Source of the DNA: Thermaerobacter marianensis
Lineage (GTDB): Bacteria; Bacillota; Sulfobacillia; DVGY01
Length of the DNA: 64,000 bases
Assembly: GCA_020724425.1 (NCBI GenBank)
Contig: DYGY01000001.1
Location: 19,080-83,079, forward strand
Reading direction: 5' to 3'
Shown: one piece after another, positions 32,414 to 62,434 of the stretch
Numbering within the stretch: position 1 is the stretch's first letter
Layout: each line of letters begins with the position of its first letter
Translations under genes and position numbers: made by a program
The notes under the pieces: generated by a model
What the model was told of the DNA's origin: nothing
Seen by the model: only the letters and a program-made list of their open reading frames with translations
Databases searched by the model: none

Positions 32414-33877
32414 ATGTATTTACAGGAATTGCTCAGGGGAATTAAATACAGAGGTGTAAAGGGATCTCTTGATGTTGATGTTTTGGGGATTACCTATGAC
32501 TCAAAAAAAGTACAGGAAGGGTTTATCTTTGTTGCCATTAGTGGTTATAAGGTGGATGGGCATGACTTTATTCCTGAGGCGATAAATAGGGGAGCTAGGG
32601 TAGTTGTAGCTGAAAAAGAGGTATCTGTAGATGGAACTTTGGTTTTGGTTGATGACTCAAGGAAGATGCTCTCCATTTTGGCGGGAATGTTCTATAATGA
32701 GCCGACTAGGGACTTGGAGTTAGTAGGGGTTACTGGGACTAATGGTAAGACAACTACTGCTTTTCTGACAAGAAGAATTTTATTAGAAAAACATAAAGGT
32801 GTTGGCCTTATCGGTACAGTTGAAAACATAGTGGGTGGAGAACATCTAGGGGTGGAAAGGACAACCCCGGAGGGTTCAGATTTGCAGGCTCTTTTTGCTA
32901 GGATGTGGGACATGGGAGATACGGCTGCTGTAATGGAGGTTTCAAGTCATGCTTTAGCTCTTGGTAGGGTAGCGGGTTGTAGTTTTGATGTGGCTGTCTT
33001 TACCAACCTTACTCAGGATCACTTGGATTTCCATGGGGATATGGAACAGTATTTCTTGAGCAAGGCCATGCTATTTACCTCTTTAGATGGTTGTGCTGTG
33101 ATTAATACTGATGATAGTTATGGGCAGAGACTTGTGGGTATGACAGATGCTAAGGTATTGACTTATGGATTAAGTGATAAGGCTGATTTATCTGCTAAGG
33201 ATTTAAGGGTTACAGCAGAGGGTACCAGCTTTATTCTTCGATATAGGGATGAGGAGTATCCTGTTAAGCTACCTTTAATCGGGAGATTTAATGTCTATAA
33301 TTCTCTGGCTGCTATAGGTGTAGGGTTACATTATGGATTAAGTATTGAAGGTATGGTTAAAGCAATTGATGATGTGGTTGTGCCCGGGAGGTATGAGCCA
33401 ATCAGGGTTGGGAAGGAACAGGACTTTGCTGTTGTTGTGGATTATGCTCATACACCTGATGGATTAGAGAATATTTTGCAGGCTACTAAGGACTTTGTTA
33501 AAGGAAGAGTCATCACCGTCTTTGGTGCTGGAGGAGACAGGGATAGGACCAAAAGACCGATTATGGGTCGGATTGCTGCTGAGTATAGTGACATGGTCAT
33601 AATTACCTCTGATAATCCACGGACTGAGGAACCTGAAAAGATTCTTCTAGATATTAAAGAGGGTGTTAGGGATGTTGAGTATAGCATGGTTGTGGATAGA
33701 CGTGAGGCTATTAACTTGGCTATAGGTATGGCTAAATCTGGAGATGTCATTCTAATTGCTGGTAAGGGTCATGAAGATTATCAGATTTTTAAGGATGGTA
33801 CAGTCCACTTTGATGATAGGGAAGAGGCTACATTGGCGCTAAGAAGACGGTTCTTTGGTGGTGAAGAACATGTTTAG
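32414..33877 (+). CDS. murE: UDP-MurNAc-dipeptide--diaminopimelate ligase
   Basis: GVTGTNGKTT, TNLTQDHLD, DYAHTPD, DNPR (DAP type), GKGHE. Confidence 0.96.
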   Translation: MYLQELLRGIKYRGVKGSLDVDVLGITYDSKKVQEGFIFVAISGYKVDGHDFIPEAINRGARVVVAEKEVSVDGTLVLVDDSRKMLSILAGMFYNEPTRDLELVGVTGTNGKTTTAFLTRRILLEKHKGVGLIGTVENIVGGEHLGVERTTPEGSDLQALFARMWDMGDTAAVMEVSSHALALGRVAGCSFDVAVFTNLTQDHLDFHGDMEQYFLSKAMLFTSLDGCAVINTDDSYGQRLVGMTDAKVLTYGLSDKADLSAKDLRVTAEGTSFILRYRDEEYPVKLPLIGRFNVYNSLAAIGVGLHYGLSIEGMVKAIDDVVVPGRYEPIRVGKEQDFAVVVDYAHTPDGLENILQATKDFVKGRVITVFGAGGDRDRTKRPIMGRIAAEYSDMVIITSDNPRTEEPEKILLDIKEGVRDVEYSMVVDRREAINLAIGMAKSGDVILIAGKGHEDYQIFKDGTVHFDDREEATLALRRRFFGGEEHV

Positions 33878-51823: not shown

Positions 51824-51852
51824 TTGACAGGTTAATTTCTGGGAACTATAAT
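51824..51852 (+). promoter_or_regulatory. SigA promoter for the ileS leader
   Basis: TTGACA-17 nt-TATAAT. Confidence 0.85.
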
Positions 51853-51863
51853 ACAAGGAAATG

Positions 51864-52106
51864 CAAGGACAGGGAGAGTAGTTGGTGATATTTCTGCAAA
51901 GCGAGTCAGGGTCTGGTGTAAGCCTGATCAGGAAACATCAATGAAAATCACCCTAGAGCTGTGAGTCGAAGATTTAGTAGGCTCACCGGTTAATCCCCGT
52001 TATCATGGATTAGCTAATGAGTGGATGGATTTGTTAATCCATCTATTAGGGTGGTACCACGGGAATAATCCCTCTCGTCCCTTGTGATGAGAGGGATTAA
52101 TTTTTG
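51864..52106 (+). promoter_or_regulatory. Ile T-box riboswitch
   Basis: Stem I with AG-rich loop and GGTG..; specifier GAAA-ATC (Ile) at 51947-51949; T-box TAGGGTGGTACCACG; terminator hairpin followed by a T-run. Confidence 0.92.
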
Positions 52107-52126: not shown

Positions 52127-54889
52127 GTGGATTATAGTAAGACACTAAATCTGCCTAAAACAGACTTTCCCATGCGGGCTAATCTACCTGCGAGGGAACC
52201 AGAGATGCAGAAACAATGGGAAGAAAAGGATATCTATGGTGAGCTTCGTAAGCAGAGAAAAGGTAAAGAGAAGTTCATCCTTCATGATGGACCACCCTTT
52301 GCTAATGGTAATATTCATCTTGGGACCACATTGAACAAGATTCTCAAGGATATTGTTGTGCGTTTTGCTTCGATGAAAGGCTATGATGCTCCCTATGTCC
52401 CTGGCTGGGATACTCATGGTCTTCCTATCGAGGTCAAGGCTATTAGTGAACTAGGCCTAAACAGGAAAGAAGTTGGCCCGATTGAGCTTCGTAACAAATG
52501 TAAAGAGTTTGCTCTCCACTATAAGGATGTACAGAAAGAAGAATTCAAACGTCTAGGTGTTATGGGTGACTGGGAGAACCCATATTTAACCTTGAATCCT
52601 GAGTATGAAGCTATACAGATAAAGGTCTTTGGTGATATGGCTAAGAAGGGCTATATATACAAGAGTCTCTACCCAGTATACTGGTGTCCAACCTGTGAGA
52701 CTGCTCTAGCAGAAGCAGAGATTGAGTTTAAGGAAAAGACCTCAGATAGTGTTTATGTACGCTTTGAGATAAAGGATGGTTTAGGTAAATTACCATTGGA
52801 TTCAGCTATTGTCATCTGGACTACAACTCCCTGGACCCTACCTGCCAATATGGGGATTAGTATTCATCCTGAGTATGACTATGTTCTTTTAGATACAGAC
52901 AAGGGCAAGTTGCTTTTGGCAGAGGGCTTGGAAGAAAAGGCTTTAGCTGCCATGGGAGTGAGAAAGAACAATACCCTGGCGAAGTTTAAGGGTATTGATT
53001 TGGAGGGAGTAGTGTGTCAGCATCCCTTCTTTGAGAGAGATTCTCTGGTTATGGTTGGTGACCATGTTACTTTGGAAGAAGGTACTGGTTGTGTCCATAC
53101 TGCACCCGCTCATGGTCAGGAAGACTTTGATATTTCAAAGAAGTATGGTCTTTCCATAATTACTCCTTTAGATTATAAAGGACACTTTACTGGAGAAGCT
53201 GAGTTCCTTGAAGGTATATATTATCAGAAAGCTAATAGGGTATTGATTGATAGAATGTCTGAGAGTGGCCATCTTCTGCAGCATAGCACTATTAAGCATC
53301 AGTATGCTCACTGTTGGAGATGTCAAAGCCCAATTGTCTGGAGAGCTACCGAACAGTGGTTTGCTAGTATTGATGGTTTTAGAAAAGAAGCTTTAGAGGG
53401 TATTGAAAAAGTTCGCTTTATCCCTGAATGGGGTAAAGAAAGGATTCATAATATGGTTGCTGACCGTTCTGATTGGTGTATTTCTAGACAGAGGGTCTGG
53501 GGTGTACCTATTCCCATCTTCTATTGTACTTCCTGTAACGAACACATAATTAATGATGAAACCATTAATGCTGTAAGTGATCTTTTTGCTAAAGAGGGCT
53601 CTAATGCTTGGTTTACTCATGAAGCAGAAGAGATTCTGCCTGAAGGATTTATTTGTCCTCACTGTGGTCATGATCATTTCCGTAAGGAAACAGACATCAT
53701 GGATGTCTGGTTTGATTCTGGTTCAAGTCATGCTGCTGTATTAAGACAGAGAGAAGAGCTTGCCTATCCGGCAGATATGTATCTAGAGGGTAGTGATCAG
53801 CATCGTGGTTGGTTTAACTCTTCTCTATCTACTTCTGTAGCTACTGAGGGTGTGCCACCATATAAGTCAGTATTGACCCATGGTTTTGTTGTTGATGGTG
53901 ATGGCCGTAAGATGTCAAAATCTTTAGGCAATGTAATCTATCCTCAAGAAATTATTGATAAGTATGGTGCGGATGTTCTTCGTCTCTGGGTTACCTCTGC
54001 TGACTATCGGGGTGATATCAGGGTCTCGATGGATATTCTGCAGCAGATGGCTGAGGTCTATCGTAAGATTAGAAATACTTTCCGTTTCATGTTGGGGAAT
54101 CTTGATAACTTTGACCCGGATACCCATATGGTGGCAGTTGAGGAACTAACTGATCTTGATCGCTGGGCTTTAGAAAAAACCAATCAGCTGGTGAAAAAGG
54201 TTAAGAGTTCTTATGAGGACTATGCCTATCATCAGATCTATCATGCAGTTCATAATTTCTGTGTTTTAGATATGAGTAACTTCTATTTTGAGATAATTAA
54301 GGATCGCATGTATACAGAAGCAGAGACTAGTAAGCTAAGGAGAGGTACTCAGACTGTTCTTTATCAGATAGCTCTTGATTTGGTTAAGTTGGTAGCACCA
54401 ATAATTCCACATACAGCTGATGAAGTCTGGCAGTATCTGCCTAAAGCAACTGATATGGCAGAGAGTGTCCATCTAACGGTAATGCCTGGAGATAAAGACC
54501 CGGTAATGAATACTGAAGAGATAGAGAACTGGCAGCAGTTACGTAAGATTAGGTTTGATGTGGCTAAAGCATTGGAAGAAGCAAGAACCCAAAAGATGAT
54601 TGGCAAGAGCTTAGAAGCTTCTTTAGAGCTATATGTCACAGAAGATCAAAGCAAGTTGTTAGAGGGTTTTGCTACACCGTTAGCTGATCTCTTCCTAGTT
54701 TCCAAGATAAATGTTATTGAAGGTAGTGTACCGGATATGGCTTTTCAGGGTGAAGTAGCAGGATTAGGAGTTCTTGTAAAGAAAGCAGAGGGAGAGAAGT
54801 GTGCTCGCTGCTGGCACTATGATGAGACTGTTGGTGAAAATCAAGAAGAACCTGAATTATGTGATCGTTGTTATAGTATTGTTAAGTAG
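52127..54889 (+). CDS. ileS: Isoleucine--tRNA ligase (type 1)
   Basis: LHDGPP.ANG.IHLG, GWDTHGLP, DWCISRQR, KMSKS, C-terminal CARCW..CDRC Zn finger. Confidence 0.97.
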   Translation: MDYSKTLNLPKTDFPMRANLPAREPEMQKQWEEKDIYGELRKQRKGKEKFILHDGPPFANGNIHLGTTLNKILKDIVVRFASMKGYDAPYVPGWDTHGLPIEVKAISELGLNRKEVGPIELRNKCKEFALHYKDVQKEEFKRLGVMGDWENPYLTLNPEYEAIQIKVFGDMAKKGYIYKSLYPVYWCPTCETALAEAEIEFKEKTSDSVYVRFEIKDGLGKLPLDSAIVIWTTTPWTLPANMGISIHPEYDYVLLDTDKGKLLLAEGLEEKALAAMGVRKNNTLAKFKGIDLEGVVCQHPFFERDSLVMVGDHVTLEEGTGCVHTAPAHGQEDFDISKKYGLSIITPLDYKGHFTGEAEFLEGIYYQKANRVLIDRMSESGHLLQHSTIKHQYAHCWRCQSPIVWRATEQWFASIDGFRKEALEGIEKVRFIPEWGKERIHNMVADRSDWCISRQRVWGVPIPIFYCTSCNEHIINDETINAVSDLFAKEGSNAWFTHEAEEILPEGFICPHCGHDHFRKETDIMDVWFDSGSSHAAVLRQREELAYPADMYLEGSDQHRGWFNSSLSTSVATEGVPPYKSVLTHGFVVDGDGRKMSKSLGNVIYPQEIIDKYGADVLRLWVTSADYRGDIRVSMDILQQMAEVYRKIRNTFRFMLGNLDNFDPDTHMVAVEELTDLDRWALEKTNQLVKKVKSSYEDYAYHQIYHAVHNFCVLDMSNFYFEIIKDRMYTEAETSKLRRGTQTVLYQIALDLVKLVAPIIPHTADEVWQYLPKATDMAESVHLTVMPGDKDPVMNTEEIENWQQLRKIRFDVAKALEEARTQKMIGKSLEASLELYVTEDQSKLLEGFATPLADLFLVSKINVIEGSVPDMAFQGEVAGLGVLVKKAEGEKCARCWHYDETVGENQEEPELCDRCYSIVK

Positions 54890-54910
54890 GCACCCATGCG
54901 GGTGCCTTAC
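54888..54910 (+). terminator. Hairpin after ileS
   Basis: AGGCACCC/GGGTGCCT stem with a weak U-tract. Confidence 0.45.
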
Positions 54911-54934: not shown

Positions 54935-55660
54935 GTGAGACAAAAAACTATTGGTATTATTGGAGGCATGGGTCCTGCAGCTACTGTTGATCTGTTTCAG
55001 AAGATCATCACCCTCACTCCGGCTAGAAGTGATCAAGACCATCTTCATATCCTGATTGATAATAATACAGGTATCCCTGATCGGGCTGCCTATCTAAGAG
55101 GAGAGGGTCCATCTCCAGTTCCTAGTATGCAGGAGACGGCTAGAAGATTAGAAAGAATGGGTGCTGATTTTCTGGTGATGCCTTGCAATACTGCCCATGT
55201 CTATCTTGATGAGATCCAAAGAGCTGTCTGGATTCCCATTCTTAACATGATGGAAGAGACTACTCAAGAGATAATAAGGAGATATCCAGATATGAAGACT
55301 ATTGGTCTTCTCGCTACTGAGACAACAGTTAACAATAGGTTGTATCATGAGCAGATGGAAGAACGAGGGTTAGAGTTGATTGTTCCTGACAAAGAACATC
55401 AGCAATTGGTGACTAGAGCAATTTATGAACCAGAGGGTATAAAAGCAGGATATTATGAGAAACCAAAGAAGTGGCTAACTCAAGCTGCTAACCATCTGGT
55501 TTCTCAGGGTGCTGAAGGCATAATCTTAGGTTGTACAGAGATTCCTCTGGTAATTAGTGAAAGTGATTGTGAGGTTCCTATCTTTGATGCTACAGCATTG
55601 TTAGCTAAAAGAGCCATCCGTTTTGCTCTAGTTGAGGAGGATAGGCAGAGTGAAGGCTGA
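54935..55660 (+). CDS. Aspartate/amino-acid racemase (Asp/Glu/hydantoin racemase family)
   Basis: GIIGGMGP.AT, MPCNTAH and LGCTEIP (two catalytic Cys). Confidence 0.9.
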   Translation: MRQKTIGIIGGMGPAATVDLFQKIITLTPARSDQDHLHILIDNNTGIPDRAAYLRGEGPSPVPSMQETARRLERMGADFLVMPCNTAHVYLDEIQRAVWIPILNMMEETTQEIIRRYPDMKTIGLLATETTVNNRLYHEQMEERGLELIVPDKEHQQLVTRAIYEPEGIKAGYYEKPKKWLTQAANHLVSQGAEGIILGCTEIPLVISESDCEVPIFDATALLAKRAIRFALVEEDRQSEG

Positions 55661-57242
55661 TTTCTTGTTAAAGGCTAGAAAAGTCTTTGATGGTGATAAT
55701 TTTGCTGGTGATACCCTAGCTGTTAAAGATGGCAGGGTACTTGCTGTTGGTAACTTTAATGACCTTAAAGAGATTAAAGCAGATGATTCTTATGAGGTTC
55801 CTGAGGGAATAGTTATTCCCGGTCTTATTGATGGTCATGCTCATCTGCTGCCCTATGGTATGTTTTTAAGAGAAGTGGATATCTCTAAAGCTAAAAGCAT
55901 TAAAGAATTGCAAATTATCTTAAAGGAAGCCCATGAGAAGCTAAGGGGTAATGAATGGCTGGTTACTAGTTCTCTATCAGAGGATAGATTGATAGAGGAG
56001 CGTCTGCCAACCCGTTATGAGATAGATGAAGCAGTACCTGATAGGCCTGTTTTTCTAAGAAGAGTCTGTTTGCATGCTGGTCTTGCTAATTCAAAGGCTT
56101 TAGAGTTAGCAGGTATTGCTAAGGATACTAAAGCTCCTCTAGGAGGAGAGATTGTCAAGGATGCTCAGGGTATTCCCACCGGTCTTCTTCTTGAGGAGGC
56201 CATGAATCTTGTTAAAGATGTTATGCCTTCCTTAAGTCTAGAAACAAAGAAAGAGGCCCTAAAGCTTGCTTTCTTTGAAGCACTAAGGAGGGGGATTACC
56301 TCTGTGCGTTCCCATGATATTGCTAAGAAGGGTGACTTTAGGCAGTATCAGGATATAGTGAGGGAAATCCAGGAAGAACTTCCTCTAAGAATTAGTGCTG
56401 ATTTTTCCTATGCTGCTTTAGCAGATCTTGATGACTATTCCTTTGGTGCTGGTGATGAATACTTTTCCTTAGGAGCCCTTAAGGTGTTTGTTGATGGCTC
56501 TTTAGGTGCAGGAACGGCCTGGTTAAAAGAGCCCTATGTTGATAGAGAGGGTAGGGGTATCCCCATTTATACTAGAGAAGAGCTTAAGAGAATACTAAAA
56601 GAGGGTTTGGGTAAAGGATTCCAACTGGCTATCCATGTTATTGGGGATCAGGCTTTAGCTGAAACCATCGGGGTTCTACAAGAATTGGAATTGAAGAATC
56701 TAAGACATAGACTTATTCATCTGCAGGTATTAGGTACAGAGTATCTGCCAATTATGAAGGAACTTGGATTAATAGCTGAGATTCAGCCAAAGTTTGTTAC
56801 CTCTGACCAGGTTTTTGCCAAAGAGAGATTGGGGAAGGAACGGGCTAGATACTCTTATGCCTGGAAGACTATTATGGCTTCAGGAGTTGGTTGTTCTGGT
56901 GGTTCTGATGCTCCAGTAGAACATATCAATCCTTTCTGGGGGATCTATGGAGCTGTAACTAGGAGACAGTTGGCTTGGACTGGAGAGGAATTAAGTCAGG
57001 AACCCTGGCACCCAGAGGAGCTCTTAACTGTAAAAGAAGCAGTATGGTTGTATACTAAAGGTGCTGCCTATGCTGAGTTCTCTGAAGAGGAAAAAGGAGA
57101 ACTAAAACCAGGATATTTTGCTGATTTTGCTATATTAGATAAAGATATTTTTGCTATTAGTCCAGACCTTATTAAAGATACAGAGGTTTTAGCTACCAGT
57201 GTTGGTGGCAGGCTCTTCTGGTGGGAAGGGAGAAGCTCATGA
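55650..57242 (+). CDS. Amidohydrolase 3 (YtcJ-like)
   Basis: PGLID.HAH, H.G.ANS.AL, K.F.DGSLG, IH.IGD, GSDAP, G.LKPGY.ADF. Confidence 0.9.
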   Translation: MKADFLLKARKVFDGDNFAGDTLAVKDGRVLAVGNFNDLKEIKADDSYEVPEGIVIPGLIDGHAHLLPYGMFLREVDISKAKSIKELQIILKEAHEKLRGNEWLVTSSLSEDRLIEERLPTRYEIDEAVPDRPVFLRRVCLHAGLANSKALELAGIAKDTKAPLGGEIVKDAQGIPTGLLLEEAMNLVKDVMPSLSLETKKEALKLAFFEALRRGITSVRSHDIAKKGDFRQYQDIVREIQEELPLRISADFSYAALADLDDYSFGAGDEYFSLGALKVFVDGSLGAGTAWLKEPYVDREGRGIPIYTREELKRILKEGLGKGFQLAIHVIGDQALAETIGVLQELELKNLRHRLIHLQVLGTEYLPIMKELGLIAEIQPKFVTSDQVFAKERLGKERARYSYAWKTIMASGVGCSGGSDAPVEHINPFWGIYGAVTRRQLAWTGEELSQEPWHPEELLTVKEAVWLYTKGAAYAEFSEEEKGELKPGYFADFAILDKDIFAISPDLIKDTEVLATSVGGRLFWWEGRSS

Positions 57243-58294
57243 AATTTACTCAAGTGACATTAGATCAAAAGGAACGTTTCAGTCAGTTCCTGCAGCAGTC
57301 TCCTTATGGCCATTTTCTGCAAACATGGGAATGGGGTGAGGTAAAGGCTAAGACAGGTTGGGAACCTTTAAGATACATGGTTGAAGAAGAGGGTAGGATT
57401 CTTTGTGCAGTCTCCCTATTAAAAAGAAAACTACCACTAGTTAACGGTTATATTCTCTATGCACCAAGAGGGCCGGTATTTGACTTAAAGGATGAAAAAC
57501 TCTTAGATTTCTTCTTGAGGGAAGTAAAGAGGGTGGCTAAGAAAGAAAAGGCCATCTTTCTTAAGATAGATCCGGCAATAGAGGATCAGGACTGTGGCAG
57601 AATTCTCAGGAATAAAGGTTTTCTTAATGCGGAGAGAGGCAAAAACTTTGAAGGTATTCAACCAAGGTTTGTTATGCGTCTGCCTTTAGAGGCCACTCTA
57701 GAAGAGATTTTAGCAGGTTTTCATCATAAGACCAGATACAATATCAGGATAGCGGAAAGAAAAGGTGTAGAGATTAGGATAGCTGAAAGCAAAGAGGAAT
57801 TAAAAGACTGGTATGAGGTTCTTTTGGAGACTGCCGAGCGAGACAACTTCCTTGTTCGTAGTTCTAAATATTTTGAAGAGATCTGGGATCAGATGAAGGA
57901 ACCTGGATTGACTAGGCTATTTCTAGCGTATTATGAAGGTGAGATGATAGCTGGAACTCTAGCTTTTCTTCACGGGGATACTGCTTGGTATCTCTATGGT
58001 GCTTCTTCTAACCGGCATAGACAGGTAATGCCTAACTATCTCTTGCAGTGGGAGATGATTAAATGGGCTAAAGAGGAAGGCTGTACTCTTTATGATTTCC
58101 GAGGTGTCTCTGGAGATATGGACCCGAGTAATCCTCTCTATGGTCTCTATCGCTTCAAGAAGGGTTTTAATCCGGAGTTAGTAGAGTTTATTGGTGAGTA
58201 TGATTTGGCTTTCAGTCCTCTGCTGTATCATCTGTATAACTATGCTGAACCAAGATACAGATACTATCGTGGGAAACTGTTGAACAGGGGTTAA
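57239..58294 (+). CDS. FemABX/FemX-family tRNA-dependent lipid II aminoacyltransferase
   Basis: HFLQ..EW..VK, YAPRGPV, KTRYNIR.A.RKGV, YLYGAS, YDFRG, GLYRFK.GF. Confidence 0.9.
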   Translation: MKFTQVTLDQKERFSQFLQQSPYGHFLQTWEWGEVKAKTGWEPLRYMVEEEGRILCAVSLLKRKLPLVNGYILYAPRGPVFDLKDEKLLDFFLREVKRVAKKEKAIFLKIDPAIEDQDCGRILRNKGFLNAERGKNFEGIQPRFVMRLPLEATLEEILAGFHHKTRYNIRIAERKGVEIRIAESKEELKDWYEVLLETAERDNFLVRSSKYFEEIWDQMKEPGLTRLFLAYYEGEMIAGTLAFLHGDTAWYLYGASSNRHRQVMPNYLLQWEMIKWAKEEGCTLYDFRGVSGDMDPSNPLYGLYRFKKGFNPELVEFIGEYDLAFSPLLYHLYNYAEPRYRYYRGKLLNRG

Positions 58295-58336: not shown

Positions 58337-58645
58337 ATGCAGGAACATAAGGATACGGCAACGCAAAAGAGACTCTTGCGAAAGCTAGATGATTTGGCCA
58401 TCAAAATGGAACAGATGAAGCTTGCGGAATACCTAGAGCTCTTTAGCAATCCCCGCAGGCTTTTCTTCATGAATCTGATGGCAGGATTAGCTAGAGGCTT
58501 GGGTATCGCCATCGGTTTCACTATTCTTGGTGCTCTTGTTATCTATATGCTCCAGCAAAGCTTTGTGCGTAACCTCCCGGTTATTGGCGACTTTATCGCA
58601 GAAATCGTCAGAATAGTCCAGATTCAACTGGAAATGAAACCTTAG
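58337..58645 (+). CDS. DUF5665 domain protein
   Basis: ME...LAEY.EL...P.RL...N..AG.ARG.G...G pattern. Confidence 0.75.
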   Translation: MQEHKDTATQKRLLRKLDDLAIKMEQMKLAEYLELFSNPRRLFFMNLMAGLARGLGIAIGFTILGALVIYMLQQSFVRNLPVIGDFIAEIVRIVQIQLEMKP

Positions 58646-58658
58646 GAGGTGCAGAGTT

Positions 58659-59276
58659 TTGCAGGAAATTGACGGGAAATATATAAAACAGTTAGAACAG
58701 GAATTAGAGGAAGTCCAAAGGGATCTACAAAGCTCTCAGGAGAATCTTAAAGACTCTATTGGTGAGCTTTCATTGTATGACAATCACCCGGCTGATGTTG
58801 GTACAGAGACCTTTGAAAAGAGCAAGGATCTGGCTCTAAGAGATCAGTTAAGAAGAAGGTATGATGACATTAAGGGTGCCATAGATCGAATTCGCAGAGG
58901 TAGCTATGGTATCTGTCTTTCTTGTGGACGCCCCATTGATCCTGATAGGCTTGCTGCCATACCTGAAGCTAGCCTCTGTATTAGTTGTCAGGAAAGAACA
59001 GAGTTAGCAGGGAAAAGAGATACCTTTGATAGACCGATAGAAGAAAGGGTGCTCCAGGTACCTTTTGCTAGAACCTTCCTTGATGGCAAAGATCAGACAG
59101 GCTATGATGGGGAAGATGCTTGGCAGGATGTGGCCAAGTATGGTACATCTGAGACTCAATCTGATCTTAGTGAAGCCCATCTGCCCCATTCCTATGAAAA
59201 CATGTTTGATGGGGCCTATGAGGAGGAAGGTATAGTTGAGGGTGTGGATAGATTAATTGATGATGATGAGCATTAG
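58659..59276 (+). CDS. TraR/DksA C4-type zinc finger sporulation protein (YteA/YlyA family)
   Basis: GELS.YDNHPAD.G.E.FE, YG.C..CG..I...RL.A.P.A.LC..CQ. Confidence 0.9.
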   Translation: MQEIDGKYIKQLEQELEEVQRDLQSSQENLKDSIGELSLYDNHPADVGTETFEKSKDLALRDQLRRRYDDIKGAIDRIRRGSYGICLSCGRPIDPDRLAAIPEASLCISCQERTELAGKRDTFDRPIEERVLQVPFARTFLDGKDQTGYDGEDAWQDVAKYGTSETQSDLSEAHLPHSYENMFDGAYEEEGIVEGVDRLIDDDEH

Positions 59277-59339: not shown

Positions 59340-59801
59340 GTGGCAGGCTTGCTAGGTATATTTATTGTAGCAATTGTAGTAATTATTCTAGATCAAATCG
59401 TTAAGTATATGGTAAAAACAAGTATGGCACTGCAACAGAGCATACCTGTTATCGAAGATGTTTTTCATATCACCTATATTCATAACCAGGGAGCAGCTTT
59501 TGGAATGTTAAGTGACAAGACTAGTCTCTTAGCATTGATGACCTTGATAGTTGTGGGTGTTCTAATCTGGTATGCAATGAGAATGAAAAGTACCTCTAAG
59601 GTTTTAAGGCTTTCCTTGGCTTTGATTCTTGGAGGTTCGGTAGGGAATTTAATTGATAGGGTTCGTTTTGGCTATGTGGTTGATTATCTTGATTTTAGGG
59701 TCTGGCCTGTTTTTAATCTGGCTGACTCGGCTTTGGTTGTTGGCGCCTTTATTCTAGGTTATCTGGTCTTAACCGATGAGACCATTTTTTCAGTAAGGTG
59801 A
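59340..59801 (+). CDS. lspA: Lipoprotein signal peptidase
   Basis: LDQ.VK, N.GAAFG, GNLIDR, VVDY, VFNLAD. Confidence 0.97.
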   Translation: MAGLLGIFIVAIVVIILDQIVKYMVKTSMALQQSIPVIEDVFHITYIHNQGAAFGMLSDKTSLLALMTLIVVGVLIWYAMRMKSTSKVLRLSLALILGGSVGNLIDRVRFGYVVDYLDFRVWPVFNLADSALVVGAFILGYLVLTDETIFSVR

Positions 59802-60706
59802 TGGGTATGGAGAGATTAGAATTTACAAGCACTCAAGAGATGAGACTAGATATCTTCTTGACTGAAACTACCGGGAAAGATTTTTCCCGGTCTTTTTGGC
59901 AGAAGCTAATTAAAGATGGGCATGTACAGGTAAATGGCAAAATAGTATCTAAGGTAGGGTATAAGCTTAGTTTTGCTGATCTGGTTTCTGTAGAGTATAA
60001 GGAACCTGCCAAACCTACGGTTAAGGCAGAAGAGATTCCCCTTGATATCCTCTATGAGGATGATGATATTCTGGTAATCAATAAGTCAAGGGGTATGGTG
60101 GTGCATCCTGCTCCAGGAAACTATTCGGGTACCCTAGTTAATGCATTGCTAGCCTATCTACCTGACTGGCAGGGAATTAAGGGGACCCAGAGACCGGGAA
60201 TAGTTCACAGACTTGATAAAGATACAACAGGACTTTTGGTTGTAGCTAAAAATGATCAGTCTCTTTTTAATCTGGCAAGACAAATAAAGGATAGAGAGGT
60301 AACTAGGGAGTATCTGGCTCTGGTTAGAGGTGTTCCTCCGGTAGAAAAGGGACTTATTGATGCTCCGATTGGCAGACATCCTGTTGATAGAAAAAAGATG
60401 GCTGTTATCCCCGGTAAAGGTAGACCAGCAAGAACTCATTTCACTCTAGAGGAGTCTTTTGGTGATAGGGCATTATTAAGGCTTAAGCTTGATACAGGGA
60501 GAACCCATCAGATCCGTGTTCATCTAGCCTATATCGGTTATCCGGTTCTTGGTGATGAAACCTATGGAAAAAAGGAAGACTACACTGGTCAGTTGCTACA
60601 TGCAAGAAGACTGGCATTTAAGCATCCACAGACCAATGAAGAACTAGAATTCACTGTTGAGCTTCCAAAAGACTTTCAAGAGGTATTAAGGGGCCTTAGA
60701 AAATGA
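59798..60706 (+). CDS. rluD: RluA/RluD family 23S rRNA pseudouridine synthase
   Basis: S4 domain, GIVHRLDKDTTG, GRTHQIRVH. Confidence 0.93.
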   Translation: MMGMERLEFTSTQEMRLDIFLTETTGKDFSRSFWQKLIKDGHVQVNGKIVSKVGYKLSFADLVSVEYKEPAKPTVKAEEIPLDILYEDDDILVINKSRGMVVHPAPGNYSGTLVNALLAYLPDWQGIKGTQRPGIVHRLDKDTTGLLVVAKNDQSLFNLARQIKDREVTREYLALVRGVPPVEKGLIDAPIGRHPVDRKKMAVIPGKGRPARTHFTLEESFGDRALLRLKLDTGRTHQIRVHLAYIGYPVLGDETYGKKEDYTGQLLHARRLAFKHPQTNEELEFTVELPKDFQEVLRGLRK

Positions 60707-61131
60707 GACTCTGGTCTATCCATCCCTGTTATCTAGATAGGCAGGGACTTCTAGCTGTCTGGAGAGAGGCTCTTCTAGCTCAACAGGTGCTCCTAGGAGC
60801 TACCAAGGGATATGGGAAACATCCTCAGCTGGACAGGTTCAAAAAGCAAAAGGAACCTCTAAGGGCTATTGCAGCCTATCTAACAGGTATCCATCAGGAG
60901 GCAGAAGCTAGAGGTTATGCTTTTGACAAAGAGAAAATTCTAACTCTGCCTCAGACAGAGAAGATATTGGTAACAGAAGGGCAGCTTTATTATGAGTGGG
61001 AACACTTCTTAAGCAAACTGCGATTACGTGATGAAAAGCGATACCAAGAACTCAAAGACCTTAAGAGGATAAAACCTCATTGTCTTTTTAGTATGGTTCA
61101 AGGGAACATAGAGAGCTTTGAAAGGAGATAA
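60703..61131 (+). CDS. Pyrimidine-dimer DNA glycosylase / T4 endonuclease V family protein
   Basis: MRLWS.HP.YLD..GL.A.WRE.LLA, GY..HPQL.RF, EA..RGY.FD. Confidence 0.88.
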   Translation: MRLWSIHPCYLDRQGLLAVWREALLAQQVLLGATKGYGKHPQLDRFKKQKEPLRAIAAYLTGIHQEAEARGYAFDKEKILTLPQTEKILVTEGQLYYEWEHFLSKLRLRDEKRYQELKDLKRIKPHCLFSMVQGNIESFERR

Positions 61132-61133
61132 CC

Positions 61134-61610
61134 ATGGAGACAGTTACAGTGATGATAGAGATACCAAAGGGAAGTAGAAACAAGTATGAGTATGACAAGG
61201 AAAAGGGTATGCTTAGGTTTGATCGGATGCTTTTTTCTGCTATTCACTATCCTAGTGACTATGGCTTCATTCTTGATACCCTAGCCTTGGATGGAGATGC
61301 TTTAGATGCATTGGTTCTTGTTTGGGAACCTACCTTCCCAGGTTGTATCATTGAAGCTAAACCTGTTGGCCTATTCAAGATGTGGGATGAAAAAGGACCT
61401 GATGAGAAGATTCTTTGTGTACCGGTTAATGATCCTCTCTGGAACCATATTGATAGACTAGAAGGAGTTCCACCTCATCTTCTAAAAGAGATTGAACATT
61501 TCTTTTCGGTATATAAGGATCTTGAAAAGAAGAAGGTAGGGGTGGAAGGCTGGGAAGACAAGGAAGCAGCTATCAAGGTAATTATAGAGGCTCAGGCCAG
61601 ATATGAATAG
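61134..61610 (+). CDS. ppa: Family I soluble inorganic pyrophosphatase
   Basis: EIPKGS.NKYE, DR.L, YP.DYGF, DGDALD, D.KILCVP, HFF..YK.LE. Confidence 0.93.
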   Translation: METVTVMIEIPKGSRNKYEYDKEKGMLRFDRMLFSAIHYPSDYGFILDTLALDGDALDALVLVWEPTFPGCIIEAKPVGLFKMWDEKGPDEKILCVPVNDPLWNHIDRLEGVPPHLLKEIEHFFSVYKDLEKKKVGVEGWEDKEAAIKVIIEAQARYE

Positions 61611-61631
61611 GGTGGTACATTACCACCCTAT
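61609..61631. terminator. Hairpin between convergent ppa and ATP-grasp genes
   Basis: TAGGGTGGTA-CAT-TACCACCCTA perfect inverted repeat. Confidence 0.65.
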
Positions 61632-62434
61632 GATGCTCTTTTATCTGGCATAAGGGGTTGTGGAGGTTCAGGCTCATCAACCCTGTTGATATATTCATGA
61701 ATAGTATTTGGTATATCAATACCCGCTAAATTAAGAGCCTGATTACCAAACATGATGTTAAACTCAAAGAAATATAAGTGGTTATTGTGGATTGCCACAT
61801 CAAACCCAGCATGGTTAATACCAAGAGTTTCTGCTAGTTTTTCTACAAGGTCAATGGCTTCTCTAGGTATGGGGCTATAGTCTATTCTACCACCTTGGGC
61901 TACATTGTTCTTAAATGATCCCTCATTTATCCGCCAGTATCCTGCTATGGCGCCAGAACCCACATAAACTATTCTCATATCCCTATCTATTTCTAGATAT
62001 TCTTGGATGTAGAGTATGTCATTGCTTTTTAGGTATTGTTCTAGTTCATTCTGATTAGTGATGAGGTAAACTCCTTTGCCCATGGAGTTCCGTATCTCTT
62101 TAGCTACAAAGGGATAGGAGAATTCCTCAAGGATTATATTCTTAGCCAGTTCGTTGTTTGGTAGAATTCTTGTATAGGGTAAATGTTCTGGCAATACTCC
62201 CTTGATAGCTCTTGTCATCTCTACCTTGTTATGGCCTAGATGATAGGAGTTTATGGAGGGAAAAATCTTCTTTTTCCAAGCATAGTGCAAAAGGTTGACC
62301 TGCCAGTATTCTGGGAAGAGAATCCAGTTGGCGTTCAAGATGATCTCCCTTTCTTTGAAAATTAGCTCAGGTTTAACATATGAGGTATTGGGTATACCAA
62401 GAGTCCTAAAGGGATCAAAGGAAATGTTTTTCAA
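61628..62434 (-). CDS. RimK-like ATP-grasp protein
   Basis: NKVEMTRA, YPFVAK...SMG.GV.L, QEYL..DRD.R, N.AQGG, GFD, E.N..FG. Confidence 0.85.
   Translation of the reverse strand: MKNISFDPFRTLGIPNTSYVKPELIFKEREIILNANWILFPEYWQVNLLHYAWKKKIFPSINSYHLGHNKVEMTRAIKGVLPEHLPYTRILPNNELAKNIILEEFSYPFVAKEIRNSMGKGVYLITNQNELEQYLKSNDILYIQEYLEIDRDMRIVYVGSGAIAGYWRINEGSFKNNVAQGGRIDYSPIPREAIDLVEKLAETLGINHAGFDVAIHNNHLYFFEFNIMFGNQALNLAGIDIPNTIHEYINRVDEPEPPQPLMPDKRAS

Follow-up and report, generated by a model that had tools for sequence, protein, structure and literature searches.

What are an aspartate-type racemase, a YtcJ-like amidohydrolase and a FemX-type peptidoglycan branch transferase doing side by side in a bacterial cell-division gene corridor? 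The question is raised by three overlapping genes in a 64-kb window of contig DYGY01000001.1 of Thermaerobacter marianensis (genome G000, of 2.08 Mb, 92% complete and the sole representative of its own family), where they lie between ileS and the DUF5665-yteA-lspA block; all positions given without a contig are positions in that window. The initial annotation of this locus described co-directional, overlapping genes with these flanks, both catalytic cysteines in the racemase, intact metal ligands in the amidohydrolase, a complete FemX and a MurE of the diaminopimelate (DAP) type, and all of these points are borne out by the matches and alignments reported below. Its authors did not know the trio as a described system, and we too found no paper on a racemase/amidohydrolase/Fem cluster in the literature searched. 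With moderate confidence, we favour a reading in two modules: FemX would branch a DAP-type peptidoglycan precursor, while the racemase and the amidohydrolase would form a hydrolase-plus-racemase couple acting on an amide or peptide of an acidic D-amino acid.

The division into two modules follows from the distribution of the genes in the class. We surveyed 161 class genomes for close amidohydrolase homologues and took adjacency from coordinate cross-reference; these genomes are kin, many of them incomplete metagenome-assembled genomes (MAGs), and the counts are descriptive only. The racemase is present in 56 of them and femX in 44. In 38 of the 56 racemase-bearing genomes the amidohydrolase gene directly follows that of the racemase, on the same strand, in the same order and often with a 4-nt overlap, and each locus inspected lies in the corridor from divIVA/ileS to yteA-lspA-rluD-pyr. 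Likewise, in a panel of 40 class genomes the two neighbours are placed after divIVA/ileS and before DUF5665-yteA-lspA-rluD. The arrangement in G014 (ileS-racemase-amidohydrolase-DUF5665-yteA-lspA-rluD) is that of the window minus femX; the pair is also found in G037, G011, G028, G038, G032, G031, G004 and G023, and in the NCBI MAG GCA_054641535.1 the order reads yggS-sepF-yggT-divIVA-DUF167-ileS-racemase-amidohydrolase. A JGI contig carries ileS-racemase-lspA-rluD-pyr. The pair is therefore a class-wide resident of this slot, and the earlier description of the trio as inserted after ileS has to be given up. The G+C content of the trio equals that of its flanks and gives no sign of recent import; together with the class-wide synteny of the slot, it rules out a recent insertion or island.

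The third gene joins the pair less regularly. The amidohydrolase gene is followed by femX in 10 of the 44 femX-bearing genomes, over five families and with the order fixed, and all three genes are contiguous in four genomes from two families. Besides G000 these are G106, G052 and G098, all of another family, whose loci read sepF-yggT-divIVA-racemase-amidohydrolase-femX-yteA-lspA-rluD-pyrR with identical flanks, so that the three genes do co-occur elsewhere in the same corridor, a check that the initial annotation had suggested. In G079, ileS-racemase, amidohydrolase and femX are dispersed over 15 kb of the slot, and the same slot holds femX in G025 and G029 (amidohydrolase-femX), in G003 (ileS-femX) and in G024/L025. 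Across the 161 genomes, however, femX and the racemase are found together in 16, against 15.3 expected if they were independent. As many as 24 of the 38 genomes with the pair lack any femX; six (G025, G029, G051, G066, G089 and G121) have amidohydrolase-femX with no slot-type racemase match, G029 having one distant racemase homologue elsewhere (29% identical); and G002, G003 and G019 carry femX without a slot amidohydrolase, G003 having neither partner. Since femX-free racemase-amidohydrolase and racemase-free amidohydrolase-femX genomes both exist, each pair works without the third gene, and the block consists of two separable modules, not of an obligate three-enzyme system.

Taken globally, the trio seems to have been present in the ancestor of at least part of the class and to have decayed by loss. 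In a tree of the amidohydrolase, the slot copies group by taxonomic family, as expected for vertical descent, with the G000 copy on a long, unplaced branch and with composition bias. The FemX tree places all class copies in one half, together with Armatimonadota, and leaves the monophyly of the slot copies unsettled. When the 80 best FemX loci across all species genomes were examined, none had an Asp-type racemase in its neighbourhood, which confines the trio block to this class, and among those 80 only L025 and L038 share the slot.

Other occupants of the slot were also recorded. In G003 (L017:6879-10902) the ileS stop and the femX start overlap by 11 nt, and where other genomes have the racemase-amidohydrolase pair the slot carries genes for an amino-acid permease, an M20 peptidase and an MFS transporter. 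In family f6 (G032, L133:6257-6967; G005, L147:6559-7308) a gene for Lit, the lipoprotein intramolecular transacylase, adjoins the amidohydrolase gene close to lspA.

The product of 54935-55660 is putatively an aspartate-racemase-branch enzyme of the Asp/Glu racemase superfamily. It scores 163 bits against PF01177 (cut-off 31) and 237 bits against the asp_race model TIGR00035 (cut-off 93), and stays under the cut-off of the MurI model TIGR00067 (51.7 bits; cut-off 146.65). Over its full length it shares about 50% identity with PhAspR, the aspartate racemase of Pyrococcus horikoshii (1JFL/2DX7), and both catalytic cysteines are intact, C84 in the motif MPCNTAH and C200 in GCTE, aligned with Cys82 and Cys194 of the 1JFL structure (E 2e-61). 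Residues R50, C84, K170, C200, T201 and E202 are invariant across 120 racemase homologues and are all kept here; we take R50 and K170 to correspond, in role as in position, to Arg48 and Lys164 of PhAspR. Unlike PhAspR, the enzyme is bacterial, fixed beside a YtcJ amidohydrolase in the cell-division corridor, and carries a unique substitution, G130T, at a position that is glycine in 103 of the 120 homologues.

A racemase of this superfamily could also serve as a housekeeping supplier of D-glutamate (and/or D-aspartate) that replaces MurI in G000, its place in the corridor reflecting that role and the amidohydrolase being an accessory. We consider this unlikely, even though it accounts for several features of the genome. 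The racemase is the sole PF01177 gene in G000; no MurI was found in this 92% complete genome either with the TIGR00067 profile or by tblastn with the MurI of relatives, nor was any PF01063/Dat-like (D-amino-acid transaminase) gene, which leaves the racemase as the only recognisable candidate for D-glutamate. That D-glutamate is needed follows from the presence of a typical MurD (400 bits), and the relatives with neither MurI nor the racemase all carry a Dat-like gene, with the exception of G035. The unique G130T would also fit a shift of this kind. On the other hand, the assembly covers only 92% of the genome, the racemase has lost none of the residues shared with the Asp-specific PhAspR, and just 56 of the 161 genomes have the racemase at all. 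Complementarity between racemase and MurI was looked for across 41 genomes and no such pattern emerged, eight genomes of the class having both and about ten having neither. In G000, murD lies on contig C6 and MurT/GatD are also present. The murD gene (G000:C6:70803-72119; L171:6789-8135) sits outside the dcw cluster, beside a gene for spore photoproduct lyase and with an aspartate-aminotransferase-like gene (L171:5560-6780) lying 9 nt upstream of it.

The amidohydrolase matches PF07969 with 340 bits over profile positions 8-469 of 472. Its ligand set (H63/H65, K278, H329, H357 and D420, numbered from 55650) reproduces the HxH, K, H, H, D pattern of the family and aligns with the motifs of 3IGH, which together with 3ICJ is its best solved relative (E 1e-42), both being uncharacterised Pyrococcus hydrolases. 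The protein is 36-42% identical to its nearest relatives, and the characterised members are all distant; it lacks a signal peptide and was judged by eye to be cytoplasmic. The characterised YtcJ-like enzymes share its PF07969 architecture and ligands, and all hydrolyse N-acyl-amine amides, as in the epsilon-lysine acylases of Streptomyces (PMC10699109) and in the Amidohydro_3 metallo-bile-salt hydrolase of Bilophila, which its authors aligned with YtcJ/COG1574 (bioRxiv 10.64898/2026.04.05.716592). No description of a conserved pairing of YtcJ-like enzymes with a racemase was found in the literature searched, and neither the Bacillaceae YtcJ nor one archaeal homologue has a racemase neighbour.

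Beyond the pair itself, three independent kinds of evidence tie such hydrolases to racemases: a locus in G036, gene fusions, and the neighbourhood of one of these fusions. In G036 (L148), an Alr-type racemase gene (L148:8397-9557) is flanked on both sides by YtcJ paralogues, with a Liv-type ABC importer, DUF917 and two PF01177 genes alongside; the whole cluster (G036:C29:250-11802) comprises PF01177 racemase, DUF917 (S-Me-THD-like), Liv-type ABC importer, YtcJ, Alr, YtcJ and second PF01177. Its make-up suggests that it serves to take up and degrade an amino-acid amide or hydantoin. In the fusion protein P0272, an AspR-type racemase part (50% identical) is joined to an amidohydrolase domain, and in four further clusters (P0277, P0278, P0284 and P0285) AspR-type racemases are fused with Peptidase_S58/DmpA. 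Other fusion partners are a YheCD-type ATP-grasp domain, GNAT and LspA (the list of fusions also includes P0283, P0282 and P0028), and some of the fusions may be gene-calling run-ons on short contigs. One S58-racemase fusion adjoins genes for a YtcJ-like amidohydrolase, a beta-lactamase-family protein, an M29 aminopeptidase, glutamate dehydrogenase and an MFS transporter. Conserved adjacency and fusions thus establish the coupling of racemase and amidohydrolase, while for its substrate and direction we infer what is set out further below.

Another candidate is a purely catabolic role, in which the racemase would be the cysteate racemase CuyB, or the pair a hydantoinase-type module, in either case unrelated to the wall. 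The racemase does exceed the cut-off of the CuyB equivalog NF052483 (261 bits; cut-off 190), a DcyD/CuyA-family gene exists at C5:7195-8187, and the G036 locus combines YtcJ paralogues with hydantoin-racemase-like genes, DUF917 and an importer. Published cuy loci are defined by a CuyA-CuyB neighbourhood (PMC11193023). In G000, however, the sole DcyD/CuyA-family gene is on another contig, where its neighbours are unrelated genes and include neither SDF transporter nor RidA nor racemase; the racemase scores nearly as well on the generic asp_race model and is closest to PhAspR; and the slot contains no transporter. We regard a catabolic role of this kind as highly unlikely.

FemX is the sole FemAB gene of the genome, present in single copy (PF02388, 235 bits). 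It matches the S. aureus FemX 6SNR (E 1.5e-57) and aligns end to end with the Weissella viridescens FemX (FemX_Wv; 4II9/1NE9) with an E value of 1.8e-38 to 4II9; like the latter, it is without the approximately 55-residue insert of the staphylococcal Fem proteins. The FemX_Wv residues K36, D108, R211, Y215, F304 and K305, which serve in catalysis and substrate binding in that enzyme, are conserved as K38 (or K36), D111, R207, Y211, F306 and K307 (numbered from the ATG at 57239). The score against NF047883, the equivalog for the Weissella UDP-MurNAc-pentapeptide-lysine N6-alanyltransferase, is 170.7 bits and falls below the cut-off of 500. Unlike that of the Weissella and S. aureus proteins, the acceptor is presumably DAP and not lysine, given the DAP-type DNPR motif at residue 400 of MurE (32414-33877). 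Judged by these similarities, FemX can credibly be assigned to peptidoglycan branching, alongside a MurE of the DAP type. The literature searched yielded no peptidoglycan chemistry for the class, and according to its genome paper none is available for T. marianensis.

In L025:9905-12879 (and in G024:C185), femX overlaps by 4 nt a gene for an atypical Alr-like protein of 593 aa, whose C-terminal domain is truncated, with about 210 unassigned residues instead. The Alr gene between the YtcJ paralogues of G036 is of the same subtype, and so is a G000 copy (C26:13419-14714), whose neighbours are a GH3 and an AsnB-like gene.

Mechanistically, the two-module account that we favour would run as follows. 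An old, vertically inherited block would occupy the corridor dcw-sepF-yggT-divIVA-(ileS)-[racemase-amidohydrolase-femX]-(DUF5665)-yteA-lspA-rluD-pyr. FemX would move an L-aminoacyl (or glycyl) residue from aminoacyl-tRNA onto the free amino group of DAP in the peptidoglycan precursor, giving a branched or bridged wall; family membership and the conserved catalytic residues point to this step. The amidohydrolase would act on an N-acyl or peptide amide and release from it an acidic amino acid, of which D-aspartate is the most likely. Such substrates could come from wall-peptide fragments or from racemised and iso-aspartyl peptides, which would be frequent in thermophiles, a group that the class appears to include. 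The racemase would then interconvert the D and L forms and make the amino acid reusable. The amidohydrolase may act on FemX products too, although nothing requires it.

Several considerations weigh against this account. Which amino acid is handled (Asp, Glu or cysteate) and in which direction the flux runs are both inferred. Genes that are unrelated in function (ileS, lspA and rluD) also hold their order in the corridor, so adjacency is weaker evidence here than elsewhere. The overlapping frames and the retention of the trio in a second family fit a joint function of all three enzymes as well as they fit synteny, and genomes of one class, many of them incomplete MAGs, are non-independent samples. 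Finally, the P0272 fusion comes from a single 3.9-kb metagenomic contig and has a hydrolase part of a different subfamily.

Salvage of D-amino acids by a hydrolase together with a racemase or epimerase has precedents in the murein-peptide recycling by YkfA-D of B. subtilis and in the N-succinyl-amino-acid racemase pathway of Geobacillus. As proposed here, these routes make D-residues reusable by combining hydrolysis of an amide or peptide with inversion at the alpha carbon. They do so with epimerases of the enolase superfamily, whose substrates are N-acyl compounds or dipeptides, and with M20 or NlpC/P60 hydrolases, whereas the pair in this slot combines a two-cysteine racemase of free amino acids with a TIM-barrel metal amidohydrolase.

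The joint function just mentioned would be one integrated pathway of wall tailoring or editing, in which FemX attaches a side-chain residue, the amidohydrolase takes it off or trims it during editing or recycling, working as an epsilon-acyl-diamino-acid deacylase, and the racemase supplies or disposes of a bridge D-amino acid. Both as a general idea and with these roles assigned, we find it rather improbable. The overlapping frames with no internal terminator-like site, the contiguous trio in four genomes of two families and the fixed order of amidohydrolase and femX in ten genomes all speak for it. So does the fact that YtcJ-like epsilon-lysine acylases cut the type of bond that FemX makes (PMC10699109). 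Moreover, because femX overlaps the gene of the Alr-type racemase in G024/L025, FemX meets racemases of two different folds. Against these points stand the independent distribution of femX and racemase, the 24 genomes with the pair and no femX, and the femX genomes that have no slot amidohydrolase. In addition, no ATP-grasp D-aspartate ligase was found in the genome, and Fem transferases use L-aminoacyl-tRNA.

The closest described arrangement in which an Asp-type racemase is encoded beside a peptidoglycan side-chain enzyme is that of RacD-AslA in Lactococcus lactis and Racfm-Aslfm in Enterococcus faecium. There the partner is an ATP-grasp D-aspartate ligase acting on L-Lys precursors, and a system of the RacD-AslA type needs both this ligase and a Lys-type stem (PMC4155827). 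Here the partners are an amidohydrolase and a tRNA-dependent FemX, and position 3 of the stem would be DAP, according to the DNPR motif of MurE, in place of the L-Lys or L-Orn of D-aspartate-bridged walls. A search for an Asl-type ligase with PF13535 and PF02655, whose assignment to Asl is uncertain, returned only hits of CarB, AccC and Pur size. The only ATP-grasp gene nearby, a RimK-like one at 61628-62434 on the opposite strand, was considered as the ligase and rejected as part of a conserved system, since 39 of 40 relatives lack it and the sole match is weak. Its product is a divergent protein of 268 aa (TIGR00768, 78 bits; cut-off 143), and the gene is convergent with ppa, between rluD and pyrR and 3.3 kb downstream of the trio. 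Given the DAP-type MurE, the failure to find an Asl-type ligase and the lack of a counterpart of the RimK-like gene in 39 of 40 relatives, a D-aspartate bridge is unlikely here. Of the interpretation in the initial annotation, the recurring trio and a credible FemX are supported; the insertion, a dedicated three-enzyme cross-bridge pathway and a D-aspartate bridge are not.

The arrangement of the locus itself is summarized in Table 1. The three plus-strand open reading frames (ORFs) span 54935-55660, 55632-57242 and 57221-58294, but the second and third probably start downstream of where they open, at a GTG at 55650 preceded by GAGGAGGA and at an ATG at 57239 preceded by GGGAAGGGAG. With these starts, the racemase and amidohydrolase genes overlap by 11 nt (55650/55660), and the amidohydrolase and femX genes by 4 nt (57239/57242, ATGA).

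Table 1. Positions of the trio and its neighbours in the 64-kb window.
Feature	Positions	Strand	Remarks
Sigma-70-type promoter of the ileS unit, TTGACA-17-TATAAT	51824-51852	+	12/12 consensus; predicted from consensus alone
T-box leader	51857-52085	+	Rfam RF00230, 141.7 bits (gathering score 93)
T-box terminator hairpin	52066-52099	+	terminator-like site
ileS (isoleucyl-tRNA synthetase)	52127-54889	+	PF00133, 495 bits, plus anticodon-binding and zinc-finger domains
GC-rich hairpin immediately 3' of the ileS stop	54890-54907	+	no U-tract; not a clear terminator
Racemase, aspartate-racemase type, pyridoxal-phosphate-independent, two-cysteine (putative)	54935-55660	+	GTG start, 241 aa
YtcJ-like (Amidohydro_3) metal-dependent amidohydrolase (predicted)	55650-57242	+	530 aa
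FemX-type aminoacyl-tRNA-dependent peptidoglycan branch transferase (predicted)	57239-58294	+	351 aa
DUF5665	58337-58645	+	Pfam and NCBIfam matches
yteA	58659-59276	+	Pfam and NCBIfam matches
lspA	59340-59801	+	Pfam and NCBIfam matches
rluD	59798-60706	+	Pfam and NCBIfam matches

DUF5665, yteA, lspA and rluD are syntenic in class relatives. No terminator-like site occurs from ileS to DUF5665, including between the genes of the trio; the hairpin behind ileS is missing from the list of such sites and was found by reading the sequence. The trio is for this reason most simply regarded as part of a long unit from ileS to rluD, probably read from the T-box-regulated ileS promoter. Two PyrR sites (62590 and 63243) mark the start of the downstream pyr operon, and the gap between rluD and this PyrR-regulated operon holds genes for a pyrimidine-dimer DNA glycosylase (60703-61131) and for an inorganic pyrophosphatase (61134-61610).

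What is new in these results is the conserved pairing of an AspR-type racemase with a YtcJ-like amidohydrolase, frequently in the company of FemX; the enzyme families themselves are known. A bolder possibility, which we consider quite unlikely, is a class-specific ancient operon in which FemX, a YtcJ deacylase and the racemase would build and edit a D-amino-acid-related DAP branch without an ATP-grasp ligase, the racemase being also the sole source of D-glutamate in G000. If true, an essential wall component would be made by a new route that does without MurI. The apparent lack of both MurI and Dat in G000 poses a separate puzzle about the origin of its D-glutamate. Within the class, lineages in which FemX recurs beside the pair probably build a branched wall of the DAP type. 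For the two families, YtcJ is very large, with few characterised members, all distant from this one, and the physiology of aspartate racemases outside lactic acid bacteria with D-aspartate bridges is unclear; the racemase-amidohydrolase pair of 38 genomes gives a concrete handle on both.

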